From IMG/VR virus record IMGVR_UViG_2563367003_000006: a stretch of 25,778 nucleotides of DNA. The stretch is one strand, 5' to 3'. Under the pieces are notes generated by a model. It saw nothing but the letters and a program-made list of their open reading frames with translations, was not told the DNA's origin and searched no databases. Every line of letters begins with the position of its first letter. Position 1 is the first letter of the stretch. The stretch is from a virus. Taxonomy: Duplodnaviria; Heunggongvirae; Uroviricota; Caudoviricetes. Below are positions 1-24,497 of this stretch, piece by piece. Position numbers and translations under genes: made by a program.

Positions 1-1320
1 ACGCTGCAGCGTCTGTTCATCGTCGTGGCGGCCCATAATAATCTGCCGGTCAATCAGCCAGCTTTCCTCACCCGGCCCCCATCCCCATACGCGCATTTCG
101 TAGCGATCCATCTGGGAGTCGATACCGGCGGTCAGGTAAGCCACACGGTCAGGAACGGGCGCTGAATAATGCTCTTTCCGCTCTGCCATCACTTCAGCAT
201 CCGGACGTTCACCGATTTTCGCTTCCCACGTCTCACCGAGCGTGGTGTTCACGAAGGTTTTACGTTTTCCCGTATCCCCTTTCGTCTTCATCCAGTCTTT
301 GACAATCTGCACCCAGGTGGTGAACGGGCTGTACGCCGTCCAGATGTGAAAGGTCACACTGTCAGGTGGCTCAATCTCTTCACCGGATGACGAAAACCAG
401 AGAATGCCATCACGGGTCCAGATCCCGGTCTTTTCGCAGATATAACGGGCATCAGTGAAGTCCAGCTCCTGCTGGCGGATGACGCAGGCATTATGTTCGC
501 AGAGATAAAACACGCTGGAGGGATCATCCGGCGTCCATTTGAGGCCAAACGGCGTCTCTTTATCGCCAAATTTAAGGTACTGCTCCTCCCCGCAGTGCGG
601 GCAGGCAACATGAAAACGCATAAAATGCGGGGATTCACTGGCTGCACGCTCAATCTGACAGGTGCCTCTCACTTTGGGCGTGGAGCCACGGATGGACTTT
701 GGCCAGACCGAGCCTTCAATACGCTTATCGCCCAGGAACGTCGGAGAGCCTTCCTGTTCAATATCCTCATCAAAGGCAGCAAGTTCATCATAACCCGCCA
801 CATCCACTGACTTTTCACGGTAGTTTTTTGCCGCTTTACCGCCCAGGCACCAGAAGCCACGCCCATTGGTGAAACGCTTCATGGTGAGCGTGTTATCCCG
901 GTGCTTTTTGCCATACCACGGGGCCAGCGCCAGCAGCGACGGAATATCACGAATAGTCGGCTCAACGTGGGTTTTCATAAAGTTCTCGGCATCACCATCC
1001 GTCGGCAACCAGATAAGGGTGTTGCGCTGCTTATGCTCTATGAAGTAGGCATAAACACCCAGCAGCATTTTGGAATAACCAACACGGGCAGACTTCACCA
1101 CATTCACCTCGCGGATGTAGTCACTGCCCATCGCATTCATGATGGCCCGCTGAAAGGGCAGTGTTTCCCAGCGCCCTTCCTGGTATGCGGATTCTTTCGG
1201 GAGATAGTAATTGGCATCCGCCCATTCAACGGCGGTCTGTGGCTCCGGCCTGAACAGTGAGCGAAGCCCGGCGCGGACAAAATGCCGCAGCCTGTTAACC
1301 TGACTGTTCGATATATTCAC
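1..1320 (-). CDS. A: Terminase large subunit gpA, N-terminal 440 codons; 3' end runs off the window
   Basis: Minus-strand GTG at 1318-1320 gives VNISNSQVNRLRHFVRAGLR; window start translates to DRVAYLTAGIDSQMDRYEMRVWGWGPGEESWLIDRQIIMGRHDDEQTL. Both match lambda gpA as I recall it. No stop before position 1. Confidence 0.9.
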   Translation of the reverse strand, partial: MNISNSQVNRLRHFVRAGLRSLFRPEPQTAVEWADANYYLPKESAYQEGRWETLPFQRAIMNAMGSDYIREVNVVKSARVGYSKMLLGVYAYFIEHKQRNTLIWLPTDGDAENFMKTHVEPTIRDIPSLLALAPWYGKKHRDNTLTMKRFTNGRGFWCLGGKAAKNYREKSVDVAGYDELAAFDEDIEQEGSPTFLGDKRIEGSVWPKSIRGSTPKVRGTCQIERAASESPHFMRFHVACPHCGEEQYLKFGDKETPFGLKWTPDDPSSVFYLCEHNACVIRQQELDFTDARYICEKTGIWTRDGILWFSSSGEEIEPPDSVTFHIWTAYSPFTTWVQIVKDWMKTKGDTGKRKTFVNTTLGETWEAKIGERPDAEVMAERKEHYSAPVPDRVAYLTAGIDSQMDRYEMRVWGWGPGEESWLIDRQIIMGRHDDEQTLQR

Positions 1321-1840
1321 TCAGCAACCCCGGTATCAGTTCATCCAGCGCGGCTGCTTTGTTCATGGCTTTGATGATATCCCGTTTCAGGAAATCAACA
1401 TGTCGGTTTTCCAGTTCCGGAAAACGCCGCTGCACCGACAGGGGGATCCCGTCGAGAATACTGGCAATTTCACCTGCGATCCGCGACAGCACGAAAGTAC
1501 AGAATGCGGTTTCCACCACTTCAGCGGAGTCTCTGGCATTTTTCAGCTCCTGTGCGTCGGCCTGTGCACGCGTAAGTCGGTGGCGTTCGTACTCAATAGT
1601 CCCTGGCTGGAGATCTGTCTCGCTGGCCTGCCGCAGTTCTTCAACTTCCCGGCGCAGCTTTTCGTTCTCAATTTCAGCATCCCTTTCGGCATACCATTTT
1701 ATAACGGCGGCAGAGTCATAAAGCACCTCATTACCCTTGCCACCGCCTCGCAGAACGGGCATTCCCTGTTCCTGCCAGTTCTGAATGGTACGGATACTCG
1801 CACCGAAAATGTCAGCCAGCTGCTTTTTGTTGACTTCCAT
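1295..1840 (-). CDS. nu1: Terminase small subunit Nu1
   Basis: 181-aa ORF MEVNKKQLADIFGASIRTIQNWQEQGMPVLRGGGKGNEV... is near-identical to lambda Nu1 from memory; overlaps the gpA start by 26 nt as in lambda. Confidence 0.9.
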   Translation of the reverse strand: MEVNKKQLADIFGASIRTIQNWQEQGMPVLRGGGKGNEVLYDSAAVIKWYAERDAEIENEKLRREVEELRQASETDLQPGTIEYERHRLTRAQADAQELKNARDSAEVVETAFCTFVLSRIAGEIASILDGIPLSVQRRFPELENRHVDFLKRDIIKAMNKAAALDELIPGLLSEYIEQSG

Positions 1841-2060
1841 TGTTCATTCCACGGCCAAAAACAGAGAAAGGAAACGACAGAGGCCCAAAAGTTCGTTTTC
1901 AGCACCTGTCGTTTCCTTTCTTTTCAGGGGGTATTTTAAATAAAAACATTAAGTTACGACGAAGAAGAACGGAAACGCCTTAAACCGGAAAATTTTCATA
2001 AATAGCGAAAACCCGCGAGGTCGCCGCCCCGTAACCTGTCGGATCACCGGAAAGGACCCG
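1841..2060 (-). other. cos: cos packaging site (cosB plus cosN); 12-nt cohesive-end sequence at 2018-2029
   Basis: Plus strand 2018-2029 is aggtcgccgccc, the reverse complement of the lambda cohesive end GGGCGGCGACCT. Flanks on both sides match my recollection of the lambda left and right ends. Confidence 0.8.
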
Positions 2061-2228
2061 AAAAATGATAATGATTATCATCTACATATCACAACGTGCG
2101 TGGAGGCCATCAAACCACGTCAAATAATCAATTATGACGCAGGTATCGTATTAATTGATCTGCATCAACTTAACGTAAAAACAACTTCAGACAATACAAA
2201 TCAGCGACACTGAATACGGGGCAACCTC

Positions 2229-2462
2229 ATGTCAACGAAGAACAGAACCCGCAGAACAACAACCCGCAACATCCGCTTTCCTAACCAAATGATTGAACAA
2301 ATTAACATCGCTCTTGAGCAAAAAGGGTCCGGGAATTTCTCAGCCTGGGTCATTGAAGCCTGCCGCCGGAGACTGTGCTCAGAAAAAAGAGTTTCTTCTG
2401 AAGCAAACAAAGAAAAGAGTGACATTACTGAATTGCTCAGAAAACAGGTCAGACCAGATTGA
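2229..2462 (+). CDS. Small ribbon-helix-helix-like protein (position of ynfO in Qin)
   Basis: 77-aa ORF; basic N-terminus then NIRFPNQMIEQINIALEQKGSGNFSAWVIEACRRRL, typical of a CopG/Arc-type fold. Begins at the edge of the cos-homologous sequence. Confidence 0.5.
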   Translation: MSTKNRTRRTTTRNIRFPNQMIEQINIALEQKGSGNFSAWVIEACRRRLCSEKRVSSEANKEKSDITELLRKQVRPD

Positions 2463-2519
2463 AGCAATTTAGATAATCGTGCAGACTACGCCCCCTCATA
2501 TCACATGGAAGGTTTATCT

Positions 2520-2930
2520 ATGGATCAGGTAGTCATTTTTAAACAAATATTTGATAAAGTTCGAAACGATTTAAACTATCAATGGTTTTATTCTGAGCTA
2601 AAACGTCACAATGTCTCACATTACATTTACTATTTAGCCACAGAGAATGTTCATATTGTATTAAAAAATGATAATACAGTGTTATTAAAGGGCCTAAAAA
2701 ACATTGTGTCTGTCAAATTTTCAAAGGATAGGCATCTTATAGAAACGACCTCTAATAAGCTGAAATCCAGAGAGATCACATTTCAGGAATACAGAAGAAA
2801 CCTTGCTAAAGCAGGAGTTTTTCGGTGGGTTACAAATATCCACGAACAAAAAAGATATTACTATACCTTTGATAATTCATTACTATTTACTGAAAGCATC
2901 CAGAAAACTACACAGATCTTACCACTCTAA
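2520..2930 (+). CDS. Hypothetical protein, YdfO/YbcV-like (DUF1398-type by recollection)
   Basis: ORF 2505-2930; preferred start is the ATG at 2520 (MDQVV...) preceded by ggaagg. AT-rich. Followed by an 8-bp-stem hairpin at 2941-2969. Confidence 0.55.
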
Positions 2931-3081
2931 ACCATAACGTCCGGCTTCTCTCACTCCTGAGCCGGACTGCATTGGTTTAATAAAAACCATCAACAATTGT
3001 GATTTAGATATTCGGAACCATTCAAATATAACAAAACCCCGTAAAAACGAGGTTTATGGATAAATTTTATTATTGAATACA

Positions 3082-3255
3082 TCAGATTAAATTAATCTTG
3101 ACATCATAGCTTTCAAGACCCGTCATTTTTTCCCGTGCGGTAAACTGAATACTGGTAACTTCTTTCCCGGTCTTTTTCTTAAGTTCAATAATTTTTTTTG
3201 TTATATATTCAGAAATATCTGCTTCTGCTTTTGTTTTTAAGTTTTCAATATTCAT
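3082..3255 (-). CDS. gnsB: GnsA/GnsB-family small protein
   Basis: Found by hand, below the ORF-track cutoff: aagaggaaATGATG then MNIENLKTKAEADISEYITKKIIELKKKTGKEVTSIQFTAREKMTGLESYDVKINLI, stop at 3082-3084. Confidence 0.7.
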   Translation of the reverse strand: MNIENLKTKAEADISEYITKKIIELKKKTGKEVTSIQFTAREKMTGLESYDVKINLI

Positions 3256-3426
3256 CATTTCCTCTTTTAGTCTGTTATGACTTTCCAGTTACACAGTAAG
3301 TCGATTATATGGTGCAAACGTGTAAAAGATAAGATGAAACATCGCAATAATCAACATACGATAGTCTAAATTTTACACAAACAGACAAAGAGAATTTTCC
3401 TGAATTATCAATGCAATAGCATCAAA

Positions 3427-3699
3427 TCAACTCAAGAGCCTTATTGCTGCTTCCAGAATTTCTTCTGAAGTAACATGTCGATCCGCGGCTACATAAATGA
3501 CTTTATGATCTCCGGTCAGAGATGGAAACCCTGCGGCCATTACAGTAAGGTGTGTTTTTTCGCCATTTGGATATTCACGCATGATGGTGTTAACTCCAGT
3601 CATCGCTGGCACTACCACTGCTGGTTCAGAGTTAAAAAAAACTATGATTTTTTTCATGATGTTACCGTAGTATGTGAGTATCCATCGAATAGACACCAA
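3427..3699 (-). CDS. Small hypothetical protein (position of ynfN in Qin)
   Basis: 90-aa ORF; internal ATG at 3657 (MKKIIVFFNSEP...) is an alternative start. No family recognised. Confidence 0.4.
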   Translation of the reverse strand: MVSIRWILTYYGNIMKKIIVFFNSEPAVVVPAMTGVNTIMREYPNGEKTHLTVMAAGFPSLTGDHKVIYVAADRHVTSEEILEAAIRLLS

Positions 3700-3700
3700 G

Positions 3701-3721
3701 CAAAAAAGCTCCCGAAGGAGC
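3701..3721 (-). terminator. Intrinsic terminator candidate downstream of the cspI-like gene
   Basis: Minus-strand reading ggctccttcgggagc followed by tttttt (plus-strand caaaaaagctcccgaaggagcc). Confidence 0.5.
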
Positions 3722-3928
3722 CTTCATTTTCACTTTTTTAAATCCAACGACAGACGGCTGGCATTTAAGTATTGTGAAATATTATCAAATGTAATCATCA
3801 TTGATTTACAAAAGATACATTTTGCCCCGAAAGGATTCATGTCAGAAACATCAAAAGATGATGTTCTATACTGGGAACCATGACAACACGGGCATCTAAA
3901 GTGAATATGGTTTGTAATATTGTCTACC

Positions 3929-4141
3929 TCAAAGCGCCACTACATGAACAGCGGCAGGACCTTTAGGTCCGTTCTCAATATCAAATTCAACTTCCTGATT
4001 CTCAGTTAATGTTTTGAAATCGTTGCTCTGAATTGCTGAGAAATGGACAAACACATCTTTGCTGCCATCTTTCGGCGTGATGAAACCAAAACCTTTTTCA
4101 GGGTTAAACCATTTCACTAAACCAGTCATTTTGTTAGACAT
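3929..4141 (-). CDS. cspI: Cold-shock protein, CspA family (CspI-like)
   Basis: [38 protein letters not shown]... has the RNP1/RNP2 cold-shock-domain motifs; 70 aa. Confidence 0.85.
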
Positions 4142-4503
4142 AATTATTACCTTTTGAAGAAATTAGCCCTTGGGCAGAATGGTCCGAAAAAAAATATCAG
4201 AGAGAAAAACCAACAAGGAAATCTCAAGAGGTACAAATAATAAAATTATAACAATGACTGCTTCAGATAAATTTGTAACAAACCAGAACACCATTAACGC
4301 ATGATTAACCACCCATAGCAAGGATTACTTTTGTAAAGAAAAACACAGCAATGAAAGAATAGCTTTATTTATTAATAAAACGTGTCATTCTGATTAAGAC
4401 CTTTTATCTTACCCTTAAGATTTCAGGAATTTTGGCTCATGGAAGAGTCCTTTTTATTTAAATTTTACATTCCGCGATGTAAATGTTCCGATTTAATATT
4501 ACC

Positions 4504-5533
<1,030 letters not shown>

Positions 5534-5609
5534 AGATATTTATGATGAGGACGCTTGAACCGCCCCGGGAATCCTGGAGACTAAACTCCCTGAGAAAGAG
5601 GTAAACAGG

Positions 5610-5936
5610 ATGACTAAAAATACTCGTTTTTCCCCCGAAGTCCGTCAGAGGGCGATTCGTATGGTTCTGGAAAGTCAGGGCGAATATGACTCACAGTGGG
5701 CGGCAATTTGTTCCATTGCCCCAAAGATTGGCTGTACACCGGAGACTCTGCGTGTCTGGGTACGCCAGCATGAGCGGGATACCGGAGGCGGTGATGGCGG
5801 GCTCACCACCGCTGAACGTCAGCGTCTGAAAGAGCTGGAACGTGAAAATCGTGAACTGCGCCGCAGTAACGATATCCTTCGCCAGGCTTCCGCTTATTTT
5901 GCGAAGGCGGAGTTCGACCGCCTCTGGAAAAAGTGA
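5610..5936 (+). CDS. IS3-family transposase OrfA (helix-turn-helix, leucine zipper)
   Basis: 108 aa, [23 protein letters not shown]...; ends at the slippery-looking A-run GAAAAAG, which overlaps the OrfB start. Confidence 0.9.
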
Positions 5937-6823
5937 TGCCACTGCTGGATAAGCTGCGTAAGCTGTACGGGGTCGGACCGGTATGCAGTGAACTACATAT
6001 TGCCCCGTCAACGTATTACCACTGTCAGCAACAGCGACATCATCCTGATAAACGCAGTGCCCGTGCGCAGCGCGATGACTGGCTGAAGAAAGAGATACTG
6101 CGCGTATACGATGGGAATCATCAGGTATACGGTGTGCGTAAAGTCTGGCGTCAGTTGTTACGGGAAGGAATCAGGGTAGCCAGATGTACAGTGGCGCGCC
6201 TCATGGCGGTTATGGGACTTGCCGGTGTTCTCCGGGGTAAAAAGGTCCGCACTACTGTCAGCCGGAAAGCCGTTGCCGCAGGCGACCGCGTAAACCGTCA
6301 GTTTGTGGCAGAACGTCCTGACCAGTTGTGGGTGGCTGATTTTACTTACGTCAGCACATGGCTGGGGGTCGTCTATGTGGCGTTCATCATTGATGTGTTT
6401 GCCGGATACATCGTGGGGTGGCGGGTCTCATCGTCTATGGAAACGACATTCGTGCTGGATGCTCTGGAGCAGGCGTTATGGGCCCGTCGACCGTCCGGCA
6501 CAGTCCATCACAGTGATAAAGGTTCTCAGTATGTATCGCTGGCCTACACACAGCGGCTTAAGGAAGCCGGATTACTGGCATCAACAGGAAGTACTGGTGA
6601 CTCGTATGACAACGCGATGGCGGAGAGCATCAATGGCCTTTACAAAGCGGAGGTAATACACCGTAAGAGCTGGAAAAACCGGACAGAAGTGGAGCTGGCC
6701 ACACTCACGTGGGTGGACTGGTATAACAATCGACGATTGCTGGAAAGGCTGGGCCATATCCCACCGGCAGAAGCAGAAAAAGCTTATTATGCTTCCATCG
6801 GAAACGATGATCTGGCAGCCTGA
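5933..6823 (+). CDS. IS3-family transposase OrfB (DDE/rve catalytic domain)
   Basis: 296 aa in the -1 frame relative to OrfA; contains [15 protein letters not shown] and a conserved E further downstream. Confidence 0.9.
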
Positions 6824-6865
6824 GTTCACAGATAAAACACTCTCCAGGAAACCCGGGGCGGTTCA

Positions 6866-7154
6866 GCTCGTGCTTATTGGCAGGATTTTCAATCTTAAAG
6901 GAGTACTGATGCTGCAGATAAGACTCAACTTTTTCTGACAATTTTTCTGCTACTTCCAGGAAGACTTGCCGGACGCTCCTTCTGGCTGCTGCCTCATAAA
7001 ACTCCAGCGCAGCTCCTTCAACACGGTCCATGGCGACATCCAGGTCAAAAATTTCACCGTCAAAGCGTTCTTTGTCCTGTAAGGCTACAGTTACCGTAAC
7101 TTTATTCTCAAAATTACGGACTCCTTTCACAACCAGTTCATAGTCTTGAGTCAT
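6866..7154 (-). pseudogene. ydfR-like small lysis-cassette gene, 3' end displaced by the IS629 insertion
   Basis: ORF 6705-7154 reads native sequence to ...ENPANKHE, then continues into the IS inverted repeat (LNRPGFPGE...). With the IS and one GCT copy removed, the frame reads ...HERPHHKYL and stops at a TGA overlapping the endolysin ATG. Confidence 0.65.
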
Positions 7155-7158
7155 TGGA

Positions 7159-7374
7159 TTACTCTCCTCTCGCAGCCTTACGCCTGTCTTCTTTAATCTT
7201 GAAATAAAGATTTGTCAGATACGTCAGCAGGCCAAAAACCAGGCTACCCAGCACACCGATTGCAGCCCACTGTGACGGAGTTACTTTATCGAGTAACTGC
7301 AATGCCCAGAAACCAGCATTACCCGCCGATGTGCCATAGGCAACACCTGTTGTTAACTTATCCATTGATTTCAT
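7159..7374 (-). CDS. Class II holin, phage-21 S-type (pinholin-like) with dual-start motif
   Basis: [71 protein letters not shown], 71 aa, two transmembrane helices, Met1-Lys-Ser-Met4 dual start; GGTGAGG ribosome-binding site upstream of 7374. The longer track ORF (to 7449) is probably an over-extension. Confidence 0.8.
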
Positions 7375-7593
7375 ATCCTCACCCCGATGTACACGGATGG
7401 TGCAATATGTTTGAAAAGATCGGAGTCTACGGGGTAGTTTTGACAGCACACGTTGTTCTCAACGGCGCTAAAAAAACATACACATTAAAAATGTGGGTAA
7501 TTATTTTGAAAGAAAGTCATATATAAAATAATAATACGAGAAATGTTTTCATATTTAGTGTACTGTATACGGCCATTTATACAGGAAAAGCCT

Positions 7594-7764
7594 ATGTCAG
7601 AACGTAAAAACTCAAAATCACGCCGTAATTATCTCGTTAAATGTTCCTGCCCAAACTGCACCCAAGAGTCAGAACACAGTTTTTCAAGAGTACAAAAAGG
7701 TGCCCTTTTGATCTGCCCTCATTGCAACAAAGTATTCCAGACAAATCTTAAAGCTGTAGCCTGA
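7594..7764 (+). CDS. Small zinc-ribbon protein (CxC...CxxC), YnfU-like by recollection
   Basis: 56 aa from the ATG at 7594 (aggaaaag upstream): MSERKNSKSRRNYLVKCSCPNCTQESEHSFSRVQKGALLICPHCNKVF... Convergent with the late operon. Confidence 0.6.
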   Translation: MSERKNSKSRRNYLVKCSCPNCTQESEHSFSRVQKGALLICPHCNKVFQTNLKAVA

Positions 7765-7818
7765 TTGATTTTATTAGTAACAAGTATTTTTTATATTTTA
7801 ATAATATATTTAAAGCAG

Positions 7819-7846
7819 ATAATAAAAAACCCGCCTGAGCGGGTTT
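7819..7846 (-). terminator. Intrinsic terminator candidate between the cspB-like gene and the holin
   Basis: Minus-strand reading aaacccgctcaggcgggttt followed by tttttatt. Confidence 0.45.
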
Positions 7847-8127
7847 GAGATTGTGGTGCTTTTTGTGGGAGTCATCCACTTACGCACTTTGTTTTGCCAT
7901 GCCAGCAGTTAGCTTCTGCTGTAAAACTATTCATGCAGCAAACCTGCACTTCACCACAATGGTTAGCATACTTTTCCTGATTAAGATTTTGCCAAATATG
8001 CTAGCCATTGTTTCATGTATTGGACCTCCTTACTTTTTATTAAAGAGATCCAATATTCACTACTCTGTCCGTATCTCTACTCAGGCATCAGCCTTCTTCG
8101 TTATCGTATACAGACGAGCGATGAATT

Positions 8128-8343
8128 TTAATCAGTAATGATGACATTTGCTGCTGCAGGACCTTTAGCACCACTCTCTATAGAGAAGGTAACCTTTTGA
8201 CCTTCAAATAAGGTTCGATAATTATCATTCTGAATCGCAGAAAAATGCACAAACACATCTTTACTACCATCAACAGGAGAAATAAAGCCGAAACCTTTAT
8301 CAGCGTTAAACCATTTTACTAAACCAGTCATTTTATTTGACAT
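8128..8343 (-). CDS. cspB: Cold-shock protein, CspA family (CspB-like)
   Basis: [38 protein letters not shown]..., 71 aa; long AT-rich 5' leader at 8344-8640. Confidence 0.85.
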
Positions 8344-8643
8344 TCTACATTCCTTAACTTGAGCCTTTCGGCATAAATGGTTTGCATAACAGAAACGACT
8401 TCGTACTTAATTGGAGAGACTCAAAGAAGGAATAAGTGAATAACACCTGAAATGAGAACTGCTTTAGTAAACTACTTCGTATATCGTCTGTTCTTCAAAC
8501 CGACGCAATCATTAACGCATAGTTGAACATATGAAGCAATGTTTATTTTAGACATCCAGCCATCTTCAACCCCATCAAAAAACTATAGCTTTCTTCAGGA
8601 ACGTGTGTATAGTGCGCCAAGTTATCAGTATTAAGGAATTTTT

Positions 8644-8856
8644 TTGTCCCGTAAAATGACAGGAATTGTCAAAACCTTTGACGGCAAAAGCGGCAAGGGT
8701 CTTATCACCCCATCCGATGGTCGTATCGATGTCCAGCTTCATGTTTCAGCGCTCAATCTCCGCGATGCAGAAGAAATTACCACCGGATTACGCGTGGAAT
8801 TTTGCCGGATAAATGGTCTGCGTGGCCCTTCAGCTGCCAATGTTTACCTTTCATGA
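8644..8856 (+). CDS. cspF: Cold-shock-domain protein (CspF/CspH-like)
   Basis: (M)[43 protein letters not shown]...; the track start at 8644 is TTG, an internal ATG follows four codons later. Divergent from the cspB-like gene. Confidence 0.8.
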
Positions 8857-9140
8857 GCTATATTAAAGCTTTAATTTCAGGCCCCATCGGATCACACATG
8901 GAGAGTTTTTATGAATAACCCCGTCTGTCTTGATGACTGGTTGATTGGCTTTAAAAGCTTATGCTGTACTTTGGCCGTAATAGCTCTGCTAATAATATAA
9001 TAAGCAGACTCATTGTGTTTAGGGACATTGTACTGGAAGAAAACATTTTAAACATCAGGCAAATAACCAAGTCACCAGCTAAATAATAAGTTAACAGACA
9101 TGAGTCCCGGGATGAGATTCAACATTACCATTGCCCCATT

Positions 9141-9182
9141 TAAAGCACAAAACCCGCTCATCAGCGGGTTTTCTACTTTTTC
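9141..9182. terminator. Hairpin terminator candidate downstream of the late promoter (tR'-like), possibly bidirectional
   Basis: aaaacccgc tcatca gcgggtttt (9-bp stem) with T-rich sequence on both sides. Confidence 0.5.
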
Positions 9183-9216
9183 TTAACGTCGGGTATACAA
9201 AGCCCATCGTTGAAAA

Positions 9217-9245
9217 AATTTTATCCATATTTTTTGAAAAATGCA
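9217..9245 (-). promoter_or_regulatory. Late promoter candidate (pR'-like) just downstream of Q
   Basis: Minus strand TTGCAT, 17 nt, TAAAAT; 33 nt after the Q stop and about 45 nt upstream of the hairpin terminator. Confidence 0.45.
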
Positions 9246-9277
9246 AACATCATGTCGCCATCTTCAGCAAAAATCAT

Positions 9278-10030
9278 TTATCTCGTCACCTTCCTCAATT
9301 GCGCTTCCGCGTATGCTTCTTCCTGCCAGCACTTTGTTACCAGTTTACCAATGACGTCCGCATACCCCTTATACCACTGATAATCGGTCAGGTCTGGTAC
9401 CAGCTTCTGGACATGACGTCGTGCCAGCGTGGTCGGTAAACGACTAAACCGGTTTCCATTACAACGCCCACAAATCTTATATACCGGTACGCCATGAAAC
9501 CGGGTTCTTTTTTCATCCAGAACAATCCCTTTACCCTTACACCCTCTGCACGCTGTGCTGGCTTCGCCCTTACCATGGCAATGCTGACATAGTTCCTTCA
9601 CCCATTCTTCCTTGATTACAGATTCCCCGCGTCTGTAGTGTTTCACCACTTCGCGCAATACATTATAAAATCCCGTACCTGAACAATGCTCACAGCGAGC
9701 CTTACTTGCCGCAGACCTGGAGTAATCAGCAAAGGCAAAACTCACGAGGTAAGGAATAATCTGTAACCGGATTTCTTCACTCAATTTGTTCAATGTCGGG
9801 TTATCCAGTGCCATCGCGTAATTTAGCAGGCCTTCAATCGCAAACTGAGGGTCCTGAACACCAACTTTTGCCAGAAATAAGGCCAACCCAAGTGGTGCTT
9901 TCGACTGCACCATCCCCTGCGCTGCCATTACATCCGTAATTGTTAAACAACCGGTGCCTGTCGCTGGAGCGTCATCGCTCAATTTTGGAGATTTTGGGGA
10001 GTAATATTTTGGTAAGGCTTCAAGGTTCAT
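9278..10030 (-). CDS. Q: Late-gene antitermination protein Q
   Basis: 250 aa from the ATG at 10030 (ggag upstream): MNLEALPKYYSPKSPK...; Cys-rich zinc-binding region (CEHCSGTG...CQHCHGKG...CRGCKGKG...CGRCNG). Position between the nin-like region and the lysis genes. Confidence 0.8.
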   Translation of the reverse strand: MNLEALPKYYSPKSPKLSDDAPATGTGCLTITDVMAAQGMVQSKAPLGLALFLAKVGVQDPQFAIEGLLNYAMALDNPTLNKLSEEIRLQIIPYLVSFAFADYSRSAASKARCEHCSGTGFYNVLREVVKHYRRGESVIKEEWVKELCQHCHGKGEASTACRGCKGKGIVLDEKRTRFHGVPVYKICGRCNGNRFSRLPTTLARRHVQKLVPDLTDYQWYKGYADVIGKLVTKCWQEEAYAEAQLRKVTR

Positions 10031-10043
10031 GCTCGTTCTCCAC

Positions 10044-11132
10044 TTACGCCAGTACGCCAATTGCCAGCGCGCGATCGATAAAACGAAATATCAGCTCCAG
10101 TTGGGAGCCATACTTATCTTCAAATGCCACTGTATCCGTATGCAGCTCGTTGTGATGCTTTCTGCACAAAGGCAACACAAAGAGATCATGTGCTTTTGTT
10201 CCCATTCCGCCCTGCCCGTGACCAATCAGATGATGCGGATCGTCGGCTGGCATACCGCAGCAAGCACACGGCTGTGTCTTAACCCAACGTGTGTATTTCT
10301 CCTTAACCCAGCGGCGACGTTTAGGCAGCTTCATGAAAGATTCCGGAGACTCTGGATCAACGGTGATGCTTACCACCGTCTTTTCCTGTGGTGATTTTTG
10401 TTGCTGGTGGGCGTAAGGCAACGGTGCAAGATTTTTTGTGCGTTGTTTCAATATGCTGGTGGCGGTCTGCTCTCCCGGTACGATGTCGCTTTCGCGGTAC
10501 ACCGAGCAGATTTTTTCCGCTGGTAATCCCAGCGAACGACGCGATACAGCCTCAGGTAGTGCATCCACCACCTGATTGCAGACCGCCCACCAGGATAATT
10601 CAGCCAAAGATAATTCCCGCTCCTGCGTACCGCTTATTGCGTGACGGATGACGTCAATCACCCATGCTGTCAGATTTTGTTGAGCAAGCAGCTCCAGTGA
10701 TTCCGATGTCTGGTCACGCAGTTGGTTGTCGCAGTGCCAGCACAACACCATTGCGCCGGTACCATAACGGTGAATGACTGTTTCAGTGTGATGGTAATCG
10801 CCATTAGGCCACTGGCAGGATGTAACATGACGTAATAGCCAGTCGGACAATGCGCCAACGCCGCCAGCAGCACGAATCACCCGTTCGTTACTAAAAAACG
10901 GCAGCAATGTTTTGTCCTCCGCCAGCGGCTGGCGAACGGCAGGAACGACTCCGGATGGCAGATTACGCATGCTTTTTGGTTCCGGTTCCACCAGCACTCG
11001 AGGATTATGAAATATCTGTATGGATTCACGGCCCGGCTTAAGGACCACCAGCCCAAGCTCAGGCACCAGAACAGGTCTAAGTAATACCCGCACGTTACCT
11101 CCAGATCCGTTGCTGGAAAGTGCGGGACGCAC
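10044..11132 (-). CDS. DUF968-type protein with C-terminal HNH-like zinc-finger nuclease motif (YdfU-like)
   Basis: 362-aa ORF; C-terminus PCACCGMPADDPHHLIGHGQGGMGTKAHDLFVLPLCRKHHNELH has paired Cys and His-His/His-Asn, HNH-like. Start codon uncertain. Confidence 0.7.
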   Translation of the reverse strand: MRPALSSNGSGGNVRVLLRPVLVPELGLVVLKPGRESIQIFHNPRVLVEPEPKSMRNLPSGVVPAVRQPLAEDKTLLPFFSNERVIRAAGGVGALSDWLLRHVTSCQWPNGDYHHTETVIHRYGTGAMVLCWHCDNQLRDQTSESLELLAQQNLTAWVIDVIRHAISGTQERELSLAELSWWAVCNQVVDALPEAVSRRSLGLPAEKICSVYRESDIVPGEQTATSILKQRTKNLAPLPYAHQQQKSPQEKTVVSITVDPESPESFMKLPKRRRWVKEKYTRWVKTQPCACCGMPADDPHHLIGHGQGGMGTKAHDLFVLPLCRKHHNELHTDTVAFEDKYGSQLELIFRFIDRALAIGVLA

Positions 11133-11373
11133 GTGGTGGGCGTTCGGAATAAGGCAGCCTGACAGAGATTATCCAGTGCCGATAGTCGAGACTGAGAGCT
11201 TTCTTAACCTCGAACCCGCGCCTGCGGTAAGAATGAATCAGCCATTCGGCCTGTTCTGCAGTGCATGGAGGGTGCTGGAACCATTCAGACTTGAATGCGT
11301 GAGAATACCTCCCGTGCGTGCAGGCAAGAACGGGCGAATTATCAGAATTGTAATATTTTGCGTTGCGTGCCAT
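11095..11373 (-). CDS. Hypothetical protein, 92 aa
   Basis: ORF only; overlaps the next ORF's 5' end by 38 nt in another frame. Confidence 0.4.
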   Translation of the reverse strand: MARNAKYYNSDNSPVLACTHGRYSHAFKSEWFQHPPCTAEQAEWLIHSYRRRGFEVKKALSLDYRHWIISVRLPYSERPPRASRTFQQRIWR

Positions 11374-11439
11374 CGGTTTTCTCCGGTGGCACGGTGTTAC
11401 TCAGCGGGAGTTCAGCCCCGCGCAAGATTGTAGATGAGT

Positions 11440-11691
11440 TTATTCTCCTGAAAAAGCAGAAAAGCCAGCTTTTATTCCGATCTCTTTCAATGCCTGTAAT
11501 GAAGTGACAAACTCACCTTCGCGCAAGATAAATCCGTCCGTGACCCGAGCATCCACAAAATTAATTAACGCAGCCCCATTCTTTCGCAAACACATAATGC
11601 GGTAATGACTAACAAGATTTCCATTTTCAACGCACACAGCATAGAGGCCATCTTCACAAAAAATTTTACGCAGTTCTTCGATGTTCATCAT
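11440..11691 (-). CDS. rem: Rem-like small protein
   Basis: 83-aa ORF MMNIEELRKIFCEDGLYAVCVENGNL...; length and position between the DUF968 gene and hokD match Qin rem as I recall it. Confidence 0.6.
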   Translation of the reverse strand: MMNIEELRKIFCEDGLYAVCVENGNLVSHYRIMCLRKNGAALINFVDARVTDGFILREGEFVTSLQALKEIGIKAGFSAFSGE

Positions 11692-11807
11692 CAGAATCCT
11701 TCCGGATAATTAGCTCTCCCCTTTAAGGGACCATCCCTCTTATCCCTGCGCGCTACTTAAGTATTTTTGATTCTATTCCGGCACCGTCCAGAACTTCAAA
11801 CGCGTTG

Positions 11808-11839
11808 AAAATAAAAACAAAAACCCGCCGAAGCGGGTT
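11808..11839 (-). terminator. Intrinsic terminator downstream of the relBE-hokD operon
   Basis: Minus-strand reading aacccgcttcggcgggtt followed by tttgtttttatttt. Confidence 0.55.
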
Positions 11840-11907
11840 AAGTGCGGGTGCGTTGAGGATGCCTGCCACATCAGAGGTGGCGAGGGATTTCTCCCCCGCC
11901 GGGTCTC

Positions 11908-12063
11908 TTACTCCTCAGGTTCGTAAGCTGTGAAGACAGCGACCTCCGTCTGGCCGGTTCGGATTCGTACCTCGCAGAGGTCTTTCCTCGTTACCAGTGC
12001 CGTCACTATGACGGTTAAACAGATGACGATCAGGGCGATTAACATCGCCTTTTGCTGCTTCAT
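11908..12063 (-). CDS. hokD: Hok-family membrane toxin (HokD/RelF)
   Basis: Found by hand, 51 aa: MKQQKAMLIALIVICLTVIVTALVTRKDLCEVRIRTGQTEVAVFTAYEPEE; single transmembrane helix plus the conserved Hok C-terminus. Confidence 0.8.
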   Translation of the reverse strand: MKQQKAMLIALIVICLTVIVTALVTRKDLCEVRIRTGQTEVAVFTAYEPEE

Positions 12064-12134
12064 AGCCTGCTTCTCCTGTCAACGCAAAGCAGAAGTGTCA
12101 CCTTCGGTGCGAAACAGAGATGTCATGCTTTGGT

Positions 12135-12422
12135 TCAGAGAATGCGTTTGACCGCCTCGCTATATACTTCCGAGCGTTCTCTTTTCCCAACAGAAATCAC
12201 GAAAACGACAACTTTCTCGTCTATAACCTGGTATACAAGGCGATAGCCTGAAGACCGGAGCTTAATCTTGTAACAATCAGGCATACCACGGAGCTTGTTT
12301 GCTTCAATCCGGGGTGACTCAAGTACTTCAACCAGCTTCTTTTTCAACTGTTCACGTACCGTCGAGCCCAGCTTTCGCCATTCCTTTAGTGCCCGCTCGT
12401 CAAAATCCAGAAAATACGCCAT
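12135..12422 (-). CDS. relE: RelE mRNA-interferase toxin
   Basis: 95 aa, MAYFLDFDERALKEWRKLGSTVREQLKKKL...; start overlaps the relB stop (TGATG). Confidence 0.85.
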   Translation of the reverse strand: MAYFLDFDERALKEWRKLGSTVREQLKKKLVEVLESPRIEANKLRGMPDCYKIKLRSSGYRLVYQVIDEKVVVFVISVGKRERSEVYSEAVKRIL

Positions 12423-12661
12423 CAGAGTTCATCCAGCGTCACACGTACTGGCTTAGGATTACGAAGCCGTTCTTTCACTATCTCCACAAGTTCAGCATCT
12501 TCATCACTCAGGAGTGTCTGTTTGAACGGCAAGCGTTCATTGTCAGCGATATACTCGAGCATGAGACGAAGCGCTTCAGAAGGAGTTACACCCATTTTTT
12601 CAAGCGCGGCGTAAGAACGCGCTTTAAGTTCATCGTCAATACGCAGGTTAATGCTACCCAT
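12422..12661 (-). CDS. relB: RelB antitoxin
   Basis: 79 aa, MGSINLRIDDELKARSYAALEKMGVTPSEALRLMLEY..., ribbon-helix-helix N-terminus. Confidence 0.85.
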   Translation of the reverse strand: MGSINLRIDDELKARSYAALEKMGVTPSEALRLMLEYIADNERLPFKQTLLSDEDAELVEIVKERLRNPKPVRVTLDEL

Positions 12662-12672
12662 GTCTTACACCT

Positions 12673-12698
12673 CTTGTAATTACAAATGTCATTACAAG
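12673..12698 (-). promoter_or_regulatory. relBE operator/promoter inverted repeat
   Basis: cttgtaattacaaatgtcattacaag just upstream of relB, an inverted repeat built from TTGTAAT-type hexads. Confidence 0.6.
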
Positions 12699-12991
12699 TA
12701 TCGCACTACAACATGCTTAGGGCAAGTCACGAAGGAAGTCAGAAAGTAGTCGTAAGAACGGTGATCACTGTCCGCTTTGTGCCAGGAGCAGCCATTGCTA
12801 AGTCCATCCTGTATTGTGCAGGTCAGCTCGTTTTTAAAGAGTCCGGCCATCATCTTACTGGTACAGACACCATATACTTTGTGACGGTCAGGCTACATAT
12901 GCACAACTCAACTTATTCATCTATTTTTTGCTTTAGCATGTCAGTGTTGCTTTCTCGTCGGCGGGTGAGCGGTGACCTGACCTGTCGATAA
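12686..12991 (+). CDS. Hypothetical ORF (position of ydfV in Qin); may not be translated
   Basis: 101-aa ORF starting inside the relBE operator; composition is not convincing. Confidence 0.3.
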   Translation: MSLQVSHYNMLRASHEGSQKVVVRTVITVRFVPGAAIAKSILYCAGQLVFKESGHHLTGTDTIYFVTVRLHMHNSTYSSIFCFSMSVLLSRRRVSGDLTCR

Positions 12992-13143
12992 AGGAACGTA
13001 ACACGTTTTATGCAACACCCGCATGCGGCAGAAAATTATTGCCGAACGTTTACCCCTGTCAACAAGCTTTACTTTCTGAGGCGCGCCAGCCCGCGAGGAA
13101 AACAATCTGAACATCAAACAATTAATGACACAAGAAATACGAT

Positions 13144-13170
13144 TAAAGATTTTTTTGTGCATGCCGATAG
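13144..13170 (+). promoter_or_regulatory. Sigma-28 (FliA) class-3 flagellar promoter for flxA
   Basis: TAAAGATT, 15 nt, GCCGATAG, fitting the TAAA-N15-GCCGATAA consensus; aaaggag ribosome-binding site follows. Confidence 0.6.
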
Positions 13171-13193
13171 TGCTTTTTTAAAAGGAGAAATCT

Positions 13194-13526
13194 ATGTCTG
13201 TCACAATTCAGGGAAATACCTCAACCGTTATTTCAAACAACTCCGCCCCGGAAGGAACATCAGAAATAGCCAAAATCACAAGACAAATTCAGGTGCTGAC
13301 TGAAAAGCTTGGGAAAATCTCATCGGAAGAGGGGATGACGACACAGCAGAAAAAAGAAATGGCTGCATTGGTACAGAAGCAAATTGAAAGCCTCTGGGCT
13401 CAACTGGAGCAGTTGTTAAGGCAGCAGGCAGAGAAAAAGAATGAAGACGCGACAGTTCAGCCTGATAAAAAAGAAGAGAAAAAAGACGATACAAATACCG
13501 CTGGCACCATTGATATTTACGTCTAA
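13194..13526 (+). CDS. flxA: FlxA-like protein
   Basis: 110-aa ORF with the sigma-28 promoter upstream and a terminator downstream; Qin position. Confidence 0.75.
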   Translation: MSVTIQGNTSTVISNNSAPEGTSEIAKITRQIQVLTEKLGKISSEEGMTTQQKKEMAALVQKQIESLWAQLEQLLRQQAEKKNEDATVQPDKKEEKKDDTNTAGTIDIYV

Positions 13527-13540
13527 GTGACAGCCGTATT

Positions 13541-13563
13541 GTGGCCCTCATCGGGCCACTTTT
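13541..13563 (+). terminator. Intrinsic terminator after flxA
   Basis: gtggccc tcatc gggccac followed by tttt. Confidence 0.55.
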
Positions 13564-13962
13564 CGCCATCAGCCTTTTCTTTAAAGACATATTATCTTTG
13601 TATCATTTCTGATAGTTAACATTACAAGATATAAGTAATGGACGCACTCCCAATTAGTCTATTTAAATCGCCACGAGTTTAACTGACAACCCATGATCAA
13701 TTATGAATTGCAACTATTTCTGTAGTCACTTTTGTGGGGACAGTCCACAAAACTGCCAACTTCCGCTTCTTGCTCTTAGCGGACATTAGCATAGGCTATT
13801 TACCATAACGCCTCATTACGCGCACCGCCCAGACTGACTCAGCGCGTTTCTGGCATATCCCCGGTAAAACAAGTAACAAACCACCCGAAAATGAACACCA
13901 GAAACGCGACTTAAGAATCTACCCTATGAATGGATATGCACTCAACCGAATCGATCTTGGTT

Positions 13963-14958
13963 TCAATCTTTTTTATCGGGATCAGGCTTCTTTTTAGGTA
14001 ACTTCGGGGGCTTAACTTGCTGATGACTTTGCGTTCGGCGCGTAAGCCAGGGATGGTCAGCTTTAGGTTTAACATAGTATTTTGAGCGTAAATCAATACG
14101 GGCATTATCCACTCGTTCATGGACACTCTTTTCATCATCCAGTGGTATAGGCTCCGGGCCATCAACATACTTTTCCCAGCCCAGCGCTTTCCCGTCATAC
14201 AGAACGTTAATTTCACCGTCAAAGTTCTCGCATACAGTAACAACCGAATGCCTAAGTCGATATCCCCGGCCCTCACTGCGTACCTGAAACGCACTGCTTT
14301 TGTACTGGAAAGTGAGATTTTTAGACAGAACGCGCTTCGCCTGTAGGCTGAAGATATAACCCAGTTCCTCTTCAGAATGGTGCACATCAAGATGAGCATT
14401 ATCAGTAGTACGAGGCGACGTAGCGAACCGGTTGTTATAGGCTTCAATAAAGGTCGGCAACCATGCATTTGCTGTTTCAATATCACTGATATTCTGAAGC
14501 CGCATTTCTTTGACCAGCCTGTCCTGTAGTGTCTGATTGGCGCGCTCTACCCGCCCTTTTGCCTGCGGGCTGTTGGCATGGATTGGCTCGATGCCCAGTG
14601 TCTTTATCGCACGAGTGAACTGGGTCAGCTCACCTTCCCGCTCTGGGTTATTTACCCTGAATATACTGTGTCTATCAGAGTAGAGAGCGAGCGGTACGCC
14701 ATGATCATTAAGGTAACCCCGGAGGGTTTCCATGTAAGCCCGGGTTGTTTCAGCAGGCACAAAACGCAACGCCATCAACGCACTGGTGGCATCATCAATG
14801 AAAACGATCAGTGTACATCTGGGGCCTCGATTTTCAAACCAGTCATGAGGTGAGCCATCAATCTGGATCAGTTCACCGTAAGATGGTCGTCGCATGCGGC
14901 GTTGATATATACGGGCAATTTTACGACGGCGTTCACGCCATAACCCCTCTTCTATCAT
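13963..14958 (-). CDS. Transposase DDE (rve integrase-core) segment
   Basis: 331 aa starting at the ATG immediately after the TAG; DDE-like motifs LIQIDGSP, ALYSDRHSIF, AKGRVERANQ. Confidence 0.6.
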   Translation of the reverse strand: MIEEGLWRERRRKIARIYQRRMRRPSYGELIQIDGSPHDWFENRGPRCTLIVFIDDATSALMALRFVPAETTRAYMETLRGYLNDHGVPLALYSDRHSIFRVNNPEREGELTQFTRAIKTLGIEPIHANSPQAKGRVERANQTLQDRLVKEMRLQNISDIETANAWLPTFIEAYNNRFATSPRTTDNAHLDVHHSEEELGYIFSLQAKRVLSKNLTFQYKSSAFQVRSEGRGYRLRHSVVTVCENFDGEINVLYDGKALGWEKYVDGPEPIPLDDEKSVHERVDNARIDLRSKYYVKPKADHPWLTRRTQSHQQVKPPKLPKKKPDPDKKD

Positions 14959-15276
14959 CTACTTTCTGAGAGTTTCAACGGATAAAGATAAACCGTGTAT
15001 CTCGCGCAATTTTTCGCACGCAAACGTAGGTCCAAAATCAGCGTAACGGCCTTTGAGGAGTGAAATTACTGTTGCTCTGAATTCAGTAGAAAAGGAATTA
15101 TTAGGACGCTTTCCACGTCGGTGGGAAACCAGACCAGAAGGCCCTTCATTTCTATACCGTTGCACCAGACGTTTAACCTGCCGAATAGAAATGCCAATGC
15201 GTGCCGCAGCTTGTTCCTGAATAATCTGAAGTCGGTGGAGTTCCTTATGACTCATCGTAACAGTCTCTTTGATCAT
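14959..15276 (-). CDS. Transposase N-terminal helix-turn-helix segment, ends at an in-frame TAG
   Basis: 105 aa, ...ARIGISIRQVKRLVQRYRNEGPSGLVSHRRGKRP...; TAG at 14959-14961 is in the same frame as the next ORF. Confidence 0.6.
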   Translation of the reverse strand: MIKETVTMSHKELHRLQIIQEQAAARIGISIRQVKRLVQRYRNEGPSGLVSHRRGKRPNNSFSTEFRATVISLLKGRYADFGPTFACEKLREIHGLSLSVETLRK

Positions 15277-15610
15277 GAAAAATCCCCCAGAGAATTGTCT
15301 GGGGACATTTTAGAATGGTTCAAAGGGGACATTACAGCTTGGTGTTAACAATAGCCTGCTTCTCCGTGCCTTTCGGCACGTAAGAGGCTAACCTACATGT
15401 GTCTAGCATGAAATTGGCCTCAGATTAATGTTAAGCGTCTTGCAGGACGCGTAATGTTAACTGGGGCTTTTCTCTATCTGCCGTTGGTGTCCATGCCCGA
15501 GGCAGATAGCCTCAAGCACCCGCAGTCATTCTACTTAACTAAGATTTCCCCGCAAACCGTTTTTGTCCAGCACAGTAAATATCCAACTAAACCAATGGAG
15601 TTCGCTGTAT

Positions 15611-15790
15611 TTACCGCCAGTATTCAATGCACATGACCGCCATGAACACCCCTAAAAAAAGGGCATTTATATATCCAAATATTAATATCAAAACATCAAC
15701 TTTTTCCATATACCTTGCTGTGAAGATGATGGGCATACATGATGCGAACAACCAGAACGCAACAAACAAAAACTGCAATGCGTTTTTCAT
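15611..15790 (-). CDS. Small hydrophobic membrane protein, 59 aa, two predicted transmembrane helices
   Basis: ATG at 15790 preceded by a strong ribosome-binding site (taggaggaata); MKNALQFLFVAFWLFASCMPIIFTARYMEKVDVLILIFGYINALFLGVFMAVMCIEYWR. Confidence 0.5.
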   Translation of the reverse strand: MKNALQFLFVAFWLFASCMPIIFTARYMEKVDVLILIFGYINALFLGVFMAVMCIEYWR

Positions 15791-16045
15791 TATTCCTCCT
15801 ACAATCAATGTGCAATTACATTTAAACACACCTCAATTTGGCCGGACATATAAATATCTAAACCAGAAAAAATCACTTACATAGCTTTACAAACTCTTTA
15901 GTCTAAAGGTTCATCGTAAAACATTCCCCATACTTATCAGTCCGTTCCGCGCCAGGTAGCTCATTGCCTTATCTGGCAACCTGTAATCAGGTTTCCGCTT
16001 TTTCAGTTGGCTGGTCGTTTAACCGACATAGTTAATCCATTAATC

Positions 16046-16332
16046 TAGTTGCCGGATGTTGGTGGATTTTCGCGTTTTAGTTGTTCATAAAAGTGCACAG
16101 CTTTAACCAGTTCTTCTGATGTAACTGGGGCTGGTGAGGCAGTGAATAAGGCCTGAATTTGATAGTTCGGCCTGTCGTTACAATCCTCTTTTTTCGGTAC
16201 ATATTTCCAGTCACCAGACCACTACTTCCCCTGAAAGTCCGTAACGCCTTTTTTCACGTAGCGATATCGCCATGCCACTGGTTTTGCTTGCCCCGCCGTT
16301 TCATGCCCTTCCTGATAATTAATCTCGCTCAT
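16046..16332 (-). pseudogene. About 96-codon reading frame interrupted by an in-frame TAG (hypothetical protein)
   Basis: ATG at 16332 gives MSEINYQEGHETAGQAKPVAWRYRYVKKGVTDFQGK, then TAG (16222-16224), then 60 more sense codons (WSGDWKYVPKKEDCNDRPNYQIQALFTASPAPVTSEELVKAVHFYEQLKRENPPTSGN) containing no ATG. Confidence 0.3.
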
Positions 16333-16942
16333 TCATCGCCCCACTCATCACAATATGCTTCGACCGGAGTTTTTCCCGCTTCATAGTCATCACGCTAGGA
16401 TTCGACATCAGCAGCACTTCCACCGCGTAACTCACCATAGTCCATTAATAGTTCATCCCGCTCTTCAAAACTGATGTTATATTTAGCTGAACAAAAATCA
16501 GCCACTTTGTTCTTCCTCATCGTCTTTTATTTCGTGGTATGAGTAATTGCAGTAGTTAAAGAAAATTTCTTATGCTCCGTCATGAATTTCCTCAGGTGTT
16601 GCGTCATCGTCCACTTCGAATACATCCTCAAAATCTCCACCAGCTATTCCCGTTTCAATAATAATTTTGAACTTTCGCATTTCACTACCGCCCTTTCGGG
16701 CGGCCTCCTGATGTTCTGAGGGTGCAGAAATCCATCCGGTTAAGGATTAAATTTTATTTACAGAACTGAATTTAATTATTCAGATATACGTATCTGTAGC
16801 CTTACGAATCTACTCACTGGATGCCTCTTTCATAAAAATAATCCAGTGGGTTTTATCGTTTTTTCCCTGTTCGTTGACAGATAACAGGTTTTCTGTCTGT
16901 CAGTGCCAGAATCTGGCTTACCGGTATTTGCGTTTCATTCCA

Positions 16943-17299
16943 TTAAAAAATCAGAACGCCGTGCGGCCTCAACACCCGAAAGGCTTCTTTAAATCTCTGT
17001 CGCGAATCATCACGCCAGGCATCTTTATTCAGCCGTCCATATTTCTTTCCCATCCAGGCGTTATCACCAACACTCTCAAGATGCGGAGGGTCTAATACAA
17101 CCATCGAAAAAGATGCGTCTGCAAATGATAATGCACGAAAATCTGCGATAATGTCAGGGCTGATAATCAAGCGTCTCCCATTGCGTAATGTGTATCCTTC
17201 TTTTCTGATATCGCTGAATATCGCCCGTTCGTCAGACTTATCGAACCAGAACATGCGGCTGCCACAGCACATATCAAGAATGGTTGCCGGTGCACTCAC
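16943..17299 (-). CDS. Short SAM-dependent methyltransferase core (DPPH motif)
   Basis: 118 aa; motif I-like ILDMCCGSRMF, acidic FSDIR, motif IV-like VVLDPPH, about 61 residues apart. No recognisable target-recognition region. Start overlaps the upstream gene's stop (ATGA). Confidence 0.6.
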   Translation of the reverse strand: MSAPATILDMCCGSRMFWFDKSDERAIFSDIRKEGYTLRNGRRLIISPDIIADFRALSFADASFSMVVLDPPHLESVGDNAWMGKKYGRLNKDAWRDDSRQRFKEAFRVLRPHGVLIF

Positions 17300-17718: not shown

Positions 17719-17758
17719 AAGTCCCCCTTAAAATTACCTCATGACCTGAAATCAACAC

Positions 17759-20971: not shown

Positions 20972-21024
20972 TTTCTGGTGACGTTTGGCGGTATCAGTTT
21001 TACTCCGTGACTGCTCTGCCGCCC
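20972..21024 (+). ncRNA. dicF: DicF small RNA (cell-division inhibitor, antisense to ftsZ mRNA)
   Basis: tttctggtgacgtttggcggtatcagttttactccgtgactgctctgccgccc followed by ttttt matches DicF as I recall it, with its intrinsic terminator. Ends are approximate because the RNA is produced by processing. Confidence 0.8.
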
Positions 21025-21575: not shown

Positions 21576-21667
21576 AACAGTTCCGTAATAAATATCCGGT
21601 TTCATTCTTATATGCCAGCAATGGCAGGGATTTGTTCATCCTTAAATCTGTCATGAGGTTAAAACAA

Positions 21668-24139: not shown

Positions 24140-24211
24140 TGTTCAACTGTCGCCGGTTGTGACTGGTATTCTGCAACCGGCGCTCGTCTGATGTAAGAGA
24201 TAAAGAAATCG

Positions 24212-24463: not shown

Positions 24464-24497
24464 CTAAAAACCACACTAACTAATGAGAGAAGTTGAA

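Follow-up and report, generated by a model that had tools for sequence, protein, structure and literature searches.

An IS629-type insertion and a frameshifted endolysin gene in the lysis cassette of a Qin-type prophage of Escherichia coli KTE98

Insertion sequences (IS) of the IS629/IS1203/IS3411 group, found in E. coli O157:H7, Shigella and Stx phages, are 1310-bp members of the IS3 family with TG...CA ends and inverted repeats of about 25 nt. They carry orfA and orfB connected by a -1 frameshift with an ALIL pseudoknot, create 3-bp target duplications and are located in lambdoid prophages. IS1203 and IS3411 are isoforms of IS629, the subtypes of which differ by 4-5%, and IS629 generates duplications of 3-4 bp without a sequence-specific target, with 62% of the O157 copies located in prophages (Rump et al., PMC3271280). 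Here we analyze a 25,778-nt stretch of viral DNA (IMG/VR record IMGVR_UViG_2563367003_000006; referred to as the window in its entirety) in which an element sharing all of these features separates the holin gene essQ from the endolysin gene rrrQ in a prophage resembling Qin, the classic cryptic prophage of E. coli K-12.

The closest described systems for the interrupted genes are the lysis cassettes of phage 21 and of Qin itself. As in the S21-R21-Rz-Rz1 cassette of phage 21, the predicted holin matches the Pfam family "Bacteriophage P21 holin S", while the predicted lysozyme has an N-terminal hydrophobic segment of the signal-arrest-release (SAR) kind and an E35/D44/T50 spacing of the catalytic triad, which together suggest a cassette of the pinholin/SAR-endolysin type. 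This lysozyme is related to the solved P21 endolysin R21 (3HDE/3HDF; E=2e-16) and to RrrD (4ZPU). It departs from phage 21 in having an additional gene, ydfR (DUF1327), which stands between the holin and endolysin genes and whose predicted layout couples it in translation to the latter, and also in the frameshift of the endolysin and the interruption of the cassette by the IS.

The resemblance to Qin is one of near-identity. Over 17154 bp, the window matches scaffold KE137154.1 of the E. coli KTE98 assembly (GCA_000408545.1) with 100% identity, and the DNA on both sides of the element aligns to Qin of K-12 MG1655 with 99.65% identity over 4244 bp (1312-5555) and 99.96% identity over 7282 bp (6866-14147). 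Gene order is also shared, with essQ-ydfR-rrrQ-rzpQ/rzoQ all on the minus strand between cspI on one side and cspB/cspF/quuQ on the other, and every protein can be assigned clearly to a family and has a near-identical orthologue in K-12. In contrast to K-12 Qin, the KTE98 prophage carries the IS, a 2-bp frameshift in rrrQ and a 4.8-kb segment (14148-18946), and it has kept integrase, large exonuclease and terminase genes that were lost from K-12 Qin.

Our analysis very probably records a recent, strain-specific insertion of an IS629 isoform that was the second, and probably neutral, hit on the already frameshifted lysis cassette of a Qin-type lambdoid prophage. We regard it as ordinary decay of a prophage rather than as a new switch for lysis: both the IS and the prophage are known, and so is the behaviour of the element. 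The element and its target-site duplication comprise the following features:

5556..6865, plus strand: complete IS629-isoform insertion sequence by our naming (IS3 family), 1310 bp, delimited by its ends, its inverted repeats and near-identical full-length E. coli copies.
5556..5580, plus strand: left terminal inverted repeat (IRL) with 5'-TG start, 25 nt, 92% complementary to 6841-6865.
6841..6865, plus strand: right terminal inverted repeat (IRR) with CA-3' end, pairing with IRL.
5610..5936, plus strand: orfA, 108 aa, with an HTH_Tnp_1 domain (PF01527, E=1.8e-12).
5933..6823, plus strand: orfB, 296 aa, in the -1 frame, with the rve DDE integrase core (PF00665, E=2.1e-26).
5891..6007, plus strand: predicted ALIL frameshift-stimulating pseudoknot of IS3-family elements (Rfam RF01497, full-length match, 116.2 bits where the gathering score is 50).
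5553..5555, no strand: left copy of the target-site duplication, GCT, from the 3-bp overlap of the flank alignments to K-12.
6866..6868, no strand: right copy of the target-site duplication, GCT, from the same overlap.

The element starts with TGAACCGCCCCGGG, ends with CCCGGGGCGGTTCA and is exactly 1310 bp long, the length of IS629. Its 25-nt terminal repeats match at 23 of 25 positions and have the TG...CA ends that are a hallmark of the IS3 family. The coding content follows the two-gene plan of this family: orfA with a helix-turn-helix domain is partly overlapped in the -1 frame by orfB, which also matches PF13276 and PF13683 (HTH_21 and rve_3) besides its DDE core. An AAAAAG motif (about 5927-5932) lies at the overlap and, with the ALIL pseudoknot, constitutes a predicted -1 frameshift signal that would give an OrfAB protein encoded by 5610-6823; homologous copies are annotated in RefSeq as 1214-nt "programmed frameshift" coding sequences. 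By its sequence, the element looks intact and potentially active. Both transposase genes are on the plus strand and are therefore antisense to the lysis genes, an orientation that the initial annotation had left unclear.

Homologues of the element are present in 4265 of the 5426 complete E. coli genomes that we searched, and the best copies, e.g., on plasmids of the enterotoxigenic E. coli strain H10407, are 99.8-99.9% identical across all 1310 bp. These closest relatives are labelled merely "IS3 family transposase" in RefSeq. Identity is 96.0% to the IS629 of phage BP-4795 that was named by its depositors, with the two copies aligning over positions 1-1310, and 95.7% to the copies in O157 Stx2a phages. 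With these identities to annotated copies, it is reasonable to name the KTE98 element an IS629 isoform; the ISfinder rule for isoforms asks for at least 95% nucleotide identity to the reference element. Its distance of 4-5% from the IS1203-type copies of O157 and Stx phages equals the published distance between IS629 subtypes (PMC3271280).

The insertion point can be read to the base. One flank alignment to Qin ends at position 9501 of the K-12 locus (L001) and the other begins at 9499; this 3-bp overlap shows that the GCT duplication is genuine rather than coincidental. A single GCT stands at the empty site in K-12 and in two IS-free alleles from independent read-set assemblies, SRR20168730 (L009) and SRR29097611 (L011), as is expected for a duplication made by an IS3-family element. 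The reconstructed empty site ...AAGCACGAGCGTCCTCATCATAAATATCTATGAAC... is found verbatim in all three, and the predicted empty junction CACGAGCGTCCTCAT is likewise verbatim in both read-set assemblies. When 1000 bp of the reconstructed site were used as query, the best match was at least 99% identical in 1436 records, and the top matches, K-12 included, were single pieces of 998 bp because the 2-bp frameshift insertion in rrrQ lies within this query. Once the IS is removed, ydfR ends in ...NKHERPHHKYL followed by a TGA that overlaps the ATG of rrrQ as ATGA, just as ydfR (9476-9787) and rrrQ (8946-9479) overlap by 4 bp in the K-12 RefSeq annotation.

All that the initial annotation had stated about the structure of this site stands. 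It had described a 1310-bp IS629 with terminal inverted repeats and a GCT duplication, placed 22 bp upstream of the endolysin ATG (5534-5555, with the ATG at 5533-5531 on the minus strand) and within the last 8 codons of a ydfR-like gene whose stop codon overlapped that ATG. The insertion indeed falls in codons 96/97 of the 103-codon ydfR and orphans 7 sense codons and the stop. Its suggestion to align IS-free relatives has been borne out by K-12, by more than 1400 complete genomes at the identity given above and by the two read-set assemblies, and the junction that it had offered for strain comparison is strain-specific and usable as a marker.

The cassette into which the element is inserted has the following parts:

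7159..7374, minus strand: essQ, P21-type class II holin (pinholin family), intact (PF04971, E=4.7e-34; K-12 orthologue).
6705..7154, minus strand: truncated ydfR (DUF1327), 149 aa in place of 103, with native codons 1-96 at 6867-7154 and 53 codons read antisense from the IS.
5530..5553, minus strand: orphaned 3' end of ydfR, codons 97-103 and the TGA overlapping the rrrQ ATG, from the reconstructed reading frame and the 4-bp overlap in K-12.
5021..5533, minus strand: rrrQ homologue, GH24 lysozyme with an N-terminal SAR-like segment, frameshifted, 170 aa against 177 in K-12, with 39 foreign C-terminal residues.
5138..5139, no strand: 2-bp GT insertion (CGTGT against CGT in K-12), with the same allele in the two IS-free assemblies.
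4504..5001, minus strand: rzpQ, Rz-type spanin (DUF2514), intact by domain match and K-12 orthologue.
4554..4808, minus strand: Rz1-type lipoprotein gene within rzpQ in another frame, with lipobox LTSC, inside the open reading frame (ORF) 4554-4826, which we take to be rzoQ from the K-12 annotation.

The endolysin gene is damaged independently of the IS. The GT insertion shifts the frame of rrrQ after residue 131, so that the last 46 of 177 residues are replaced by 39 unrelated ones, the Pfam lysozyme match ends at profile position 104 of 125, and the stop codon is moved away from the start of rzpQ. The cassette thus lacks the intact endolysin frame that functional lysis calls for, and loss of endolysin activity is probable. 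SRR20168730 and SRR29097611 encode exactly the same frameshifted lysozyme of 170 aa directly after an intact ydfR of 103 aa and lack the IS, and the flanks of these alleles are 99.93-100% identical to the window; a contig of SRR639979 (L010) carries both the frameshift and the same IS-rrrQ junction. Since IS-free alleles share the frameshift, the endolysin was most likely broken before the IS arrived, and the most parsimonious order from these alleles appears to be frameshift first and IS second. This leaves the claim in the initial annotation that the insertion itself probably makes the prophage lysis-defective or changes its lysis timing without support as it was worded.

The exact junction is peculiar to one strain. 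Using 600-bp junction-spanning queries, we found neither the left nor the right KTE98 junction as a single piece in any of the 5426 complete E. coli genomes, and all high-coverage matches of these queries were IS copies at other positions. One match in an O121 genome came as a single piece at 86.5% but was rejected as the same junction: it belongs to another prophage, its distance to the ATG is 39 bp, and it has no duplication. In a set of about 15 billion proteins, the fusion protein of ydfR and IS-derived codons is likewise alone in its cluster, the sole member being EOV98606.1 from E. coli KTE98.

While the exact KTE98 junction is unique, insertions of this kind are frequent. In 15 complete E. 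coli genomes, an IS629-family copy in the same orientation is located at most a few hundred bp upstream of an rrrQ-like lysozyme gene, and a chimeric query found 36 genomes with the opposite orientation; these 51 genomes are a lower bound. An orientation bias that we had suspected after the first six cases was dropped in view of the 36 opposite-orientation genomes. We mapped 11 such insertions (in NCTC9038, 2014C-4423, F8704-2, 14EC007, SW071614, WS3294A, APEC E12053, PSS-11, 13E0725, the O121 lineage and O103 12009). The recurrent insertions were seen at loci L004, L005, L006, L007, L012, L013-L018 and L002 of other E. coli genomes. The mapped insertions lie 39-381 bp from the lysozyme ATG, one of them inside rrrQ, and occur in both orientations, with IS copies 94.8-97.8% identical to that of KTE98. 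Their target duplications are TTA, GCT, CTT, TTG, GCT, TCT, CGAC, TAG and CAG, and two have none. They thus resemble the KTE98 case in IS family, interval and mostly 3-4 bp duplications but differ in position and isoform, and none of them has the KTE98 junction. The two without matching duplication adjoin the lysozyme gene in O121 GTVSS-020 (L002 2810-4119, GTA|GAC) and O103:H2 12009 (L016 2181-3490, GTA|CAT), which suggests IS-mediated deletion or recombination rather than simple insertion at these two loci. In the literature, our search for IS629 together with holin turned up a single paper, which deals with IS elements of the Q-S region in Stx2a phages.

Such recurrence raises the alternative that the holin-endolysin interval of lambdoid prophages, i.e., ydfR and its neighbours, is a hot spot or selected zone for IS629-family elements in which insertions are kept since they silence toxic lysis genes. 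Besides the 15 and 36 genomes mentioned above with at least 11 independent insertions, this idea draws on the identical GCT triplet of ydfR having been struck in 2014C-4423 (L005 3019-4328) and SW071614 (L013 2319-3628); these two are independent events, because they have opposite orientations and their IS copies are 95.1% identical. If insertion is uniform, a genome has about 7 copies of the IS and about 2-3 lysozyme loci, and windows are 800 bp long, a rough chance expectation is about 13 genomes, which makes the enrichment roughly 4-fold with genomes counted irrespective of clonal relatedness. However, this does not exceed the reported general bias of IS629 toward prophages (PMC3271280), and in KTE98 an already dead endolysin would leave little to select against. 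We therefore consider this explanation unlikely for the KTE98 insertion and do not claim a specific hot spot from a 4-fold enrichment.

A second alternative, which we judge rather improbable, is the one that the initial annotation had favoured, namely that a lysis defect or shifted lysis timing of the prophage is caused by the IS insertion itself, through polarity and lost ydfR-rrrQ coupling. Its premises are sound in part. The initial annotation was right that 1.3 kb with two transposase ORFs (on the plus strand) now lie between the holin and endolysin-Rz-Rz1, and the ATGA overlap of ydfR and rrrQ is gone. The rrrQ start has no Shine-Dalgarno sequence, with a best anti-Shine-Dalgarno duplex of +1.1 kcal/mol against -6.3 for essQ, -9.5 for ydfR and -8.4 for rzpQ, and rrrQ translation plausibly depends on ribosomes terminating ydfR at ATGA. 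Ribosomes on ydfR now stop at 6705, about 1.17 kb upstream of rrrQ. Because rrrQ lacks its own Shine-Dalgarno sequence, a loss of coupling, as already proposed in the initial annotation, is a sound inference from the gene layout; the separation itself is plain, and the loss of coupling plausible. A scan for promoter-like sites reading out of the left end of the IS toward rrrQ found none, and the antisense strand of the IS, scanned for strong terminators, yielded one weak 5-bp hairpin in IRR; the site counts did not exceed those of shuffled controls, and transcriptional polarity is uncertain. Yet the independent endolysin frameshift, which is shared by IS-free alleles with near-identical flanks, means that the IS cannot be the first or sole cause of a lysis defect. 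In addition, the homologous ydfR cluster of K-12 is essentially silent, with almost no RNA-seq reads under standard conditions (PMC13232886).

It is scarcely credible that the junction is an assembly artefact in which a repeated IS, a classic source of misjoins, was misplaced in the draft scaffold assembly of KTE98, because the left as well as the right junction is there, with a perfect duplication of 3 bp that matches the single GCT of the empty site, and the independently assembled SRR639979 contig (seen in 4 samples) joins 28 bp of the IS end to the same flank.

Several points nevertheless count against a neutral IS629 insertion into an already broken cassette. The isoform name has been assigned from the 96.0% identity to an author-named copy and not from the type sequences of IS629 (Shigella sonnei), IS3411 or IS1203. 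The order of frameshift and IS rests on parsimony, and precise excision from the IS-free alleles is a formally possible, less parsimonious route; precise excision of IS629 is known to occur in the presence of IEE (bioRxiv 10.1101/2023.06.07.543989). The truncated endolysin keeps E35/D44/T50 and might retain some activity. Finally, transcription of rrrQ-rzpQ may persist if the IS is read through by Q-modified RNA polymerase.

On balance, we favour the following course of events for the KTE98 insertion. An intact IS629 isoform, with orfA/orfB, a -1 programmed frameshift and a DDE transposase, entered the last codons of ydfR and duplicated GCT, presumably via the copy-out/paste-in route of the IS3 family. 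YdfR has lost its last 7 residues and gained a 53-residue IS-derived tail. Its DUF1327 match (residues 1-93) is complete. Residues 1-72 of YdfR bind RNase E at its catalytic domain according to a 2026 report (PMC13232886), and since residues 1-96 are kept, this interaction surface is not removed. Ribosomes finishing ydfR would no longer reach the ATG of rrrQ, whose translation should fall for want of a Shine-Dalgarno sequence, and antisense IS RNA of 1.3 kb, of which about 1.17 kb is not translated, would separate holin from endolysin. As the IS most likely landed in a cassette already crippled for lysis, all of this would amount to neutral decay of the sort typical of IS629 accumulation in prophages.

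The remainder of the window indicates that, judging from gene content, the KTE98 prophage is a less eroded relative of Qin. Unlike Qin of K-12, it has Nu1 and large-terminase genes at positions 1-1840 and, at 21632-25778, genes for a protein of 835 aa that carries a 3'-5' exonuclease domain at its C-terminus and for a complete tyrosine integrase of 431 aa ending at the edge of the window. The 4.8-kb segment missing from K-12 Qin has DUF977, YdaT-like and methyltransferase-like ORFs and is contiguous at 99.9% identity in other E. coli, e.g., strain cq9; by this comparison, K-12 Qin appears to have a deletion. Within this segment, a sok antitoxin RNA at 15350-15521 on the minus strand (Rfam RF01794, 104 bits) implies a putative hok/sok-type locus in addition to the hokD locus conserved with K-12. 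Two adjacent minus-strand ORFs at 13963-15276, encoding 105 aa (HTH_29/HTH_32) and 331 aa (weak rve_3 match), have relatives called "ISNCY family transposase" in RefSeq and form a second mobile-element-like insertion. Features expected of Qin include 5' leaders of the cspA thermoregulator type (3902-4287 and 8112-8504, minus strand), which precede the homologues of cspI and cspB, and the small RNA DicF (20973-21024, plus strand). At position 3641, the window has one extra T compared with the MG1655 record, where ynfN is annotated as "frameshifted", so that ynfN is an intact ORF of 76 aa here, as in NCTC9038.

The junction can serve as a clean marker specific to E. coli KTE98, and with its verified empty site it is an exact case of a 3-bp duplication by an IS3-family element. 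A lysis phenotype read from the IS alone would mislead, given that the endolysin frameshift had most likely inactivated the cassette already. Beyond such bookkeeping its importance is small, and what it adds for E. coli at large is a modest population question, i.e., whether the holin-lysozyme interval is a hot spot for these elements or a place where damage is tolerated. If the former were true, retention of such insertions could be a recurrent and selected way for E. coli to disarm the lysis genes of its prophages.

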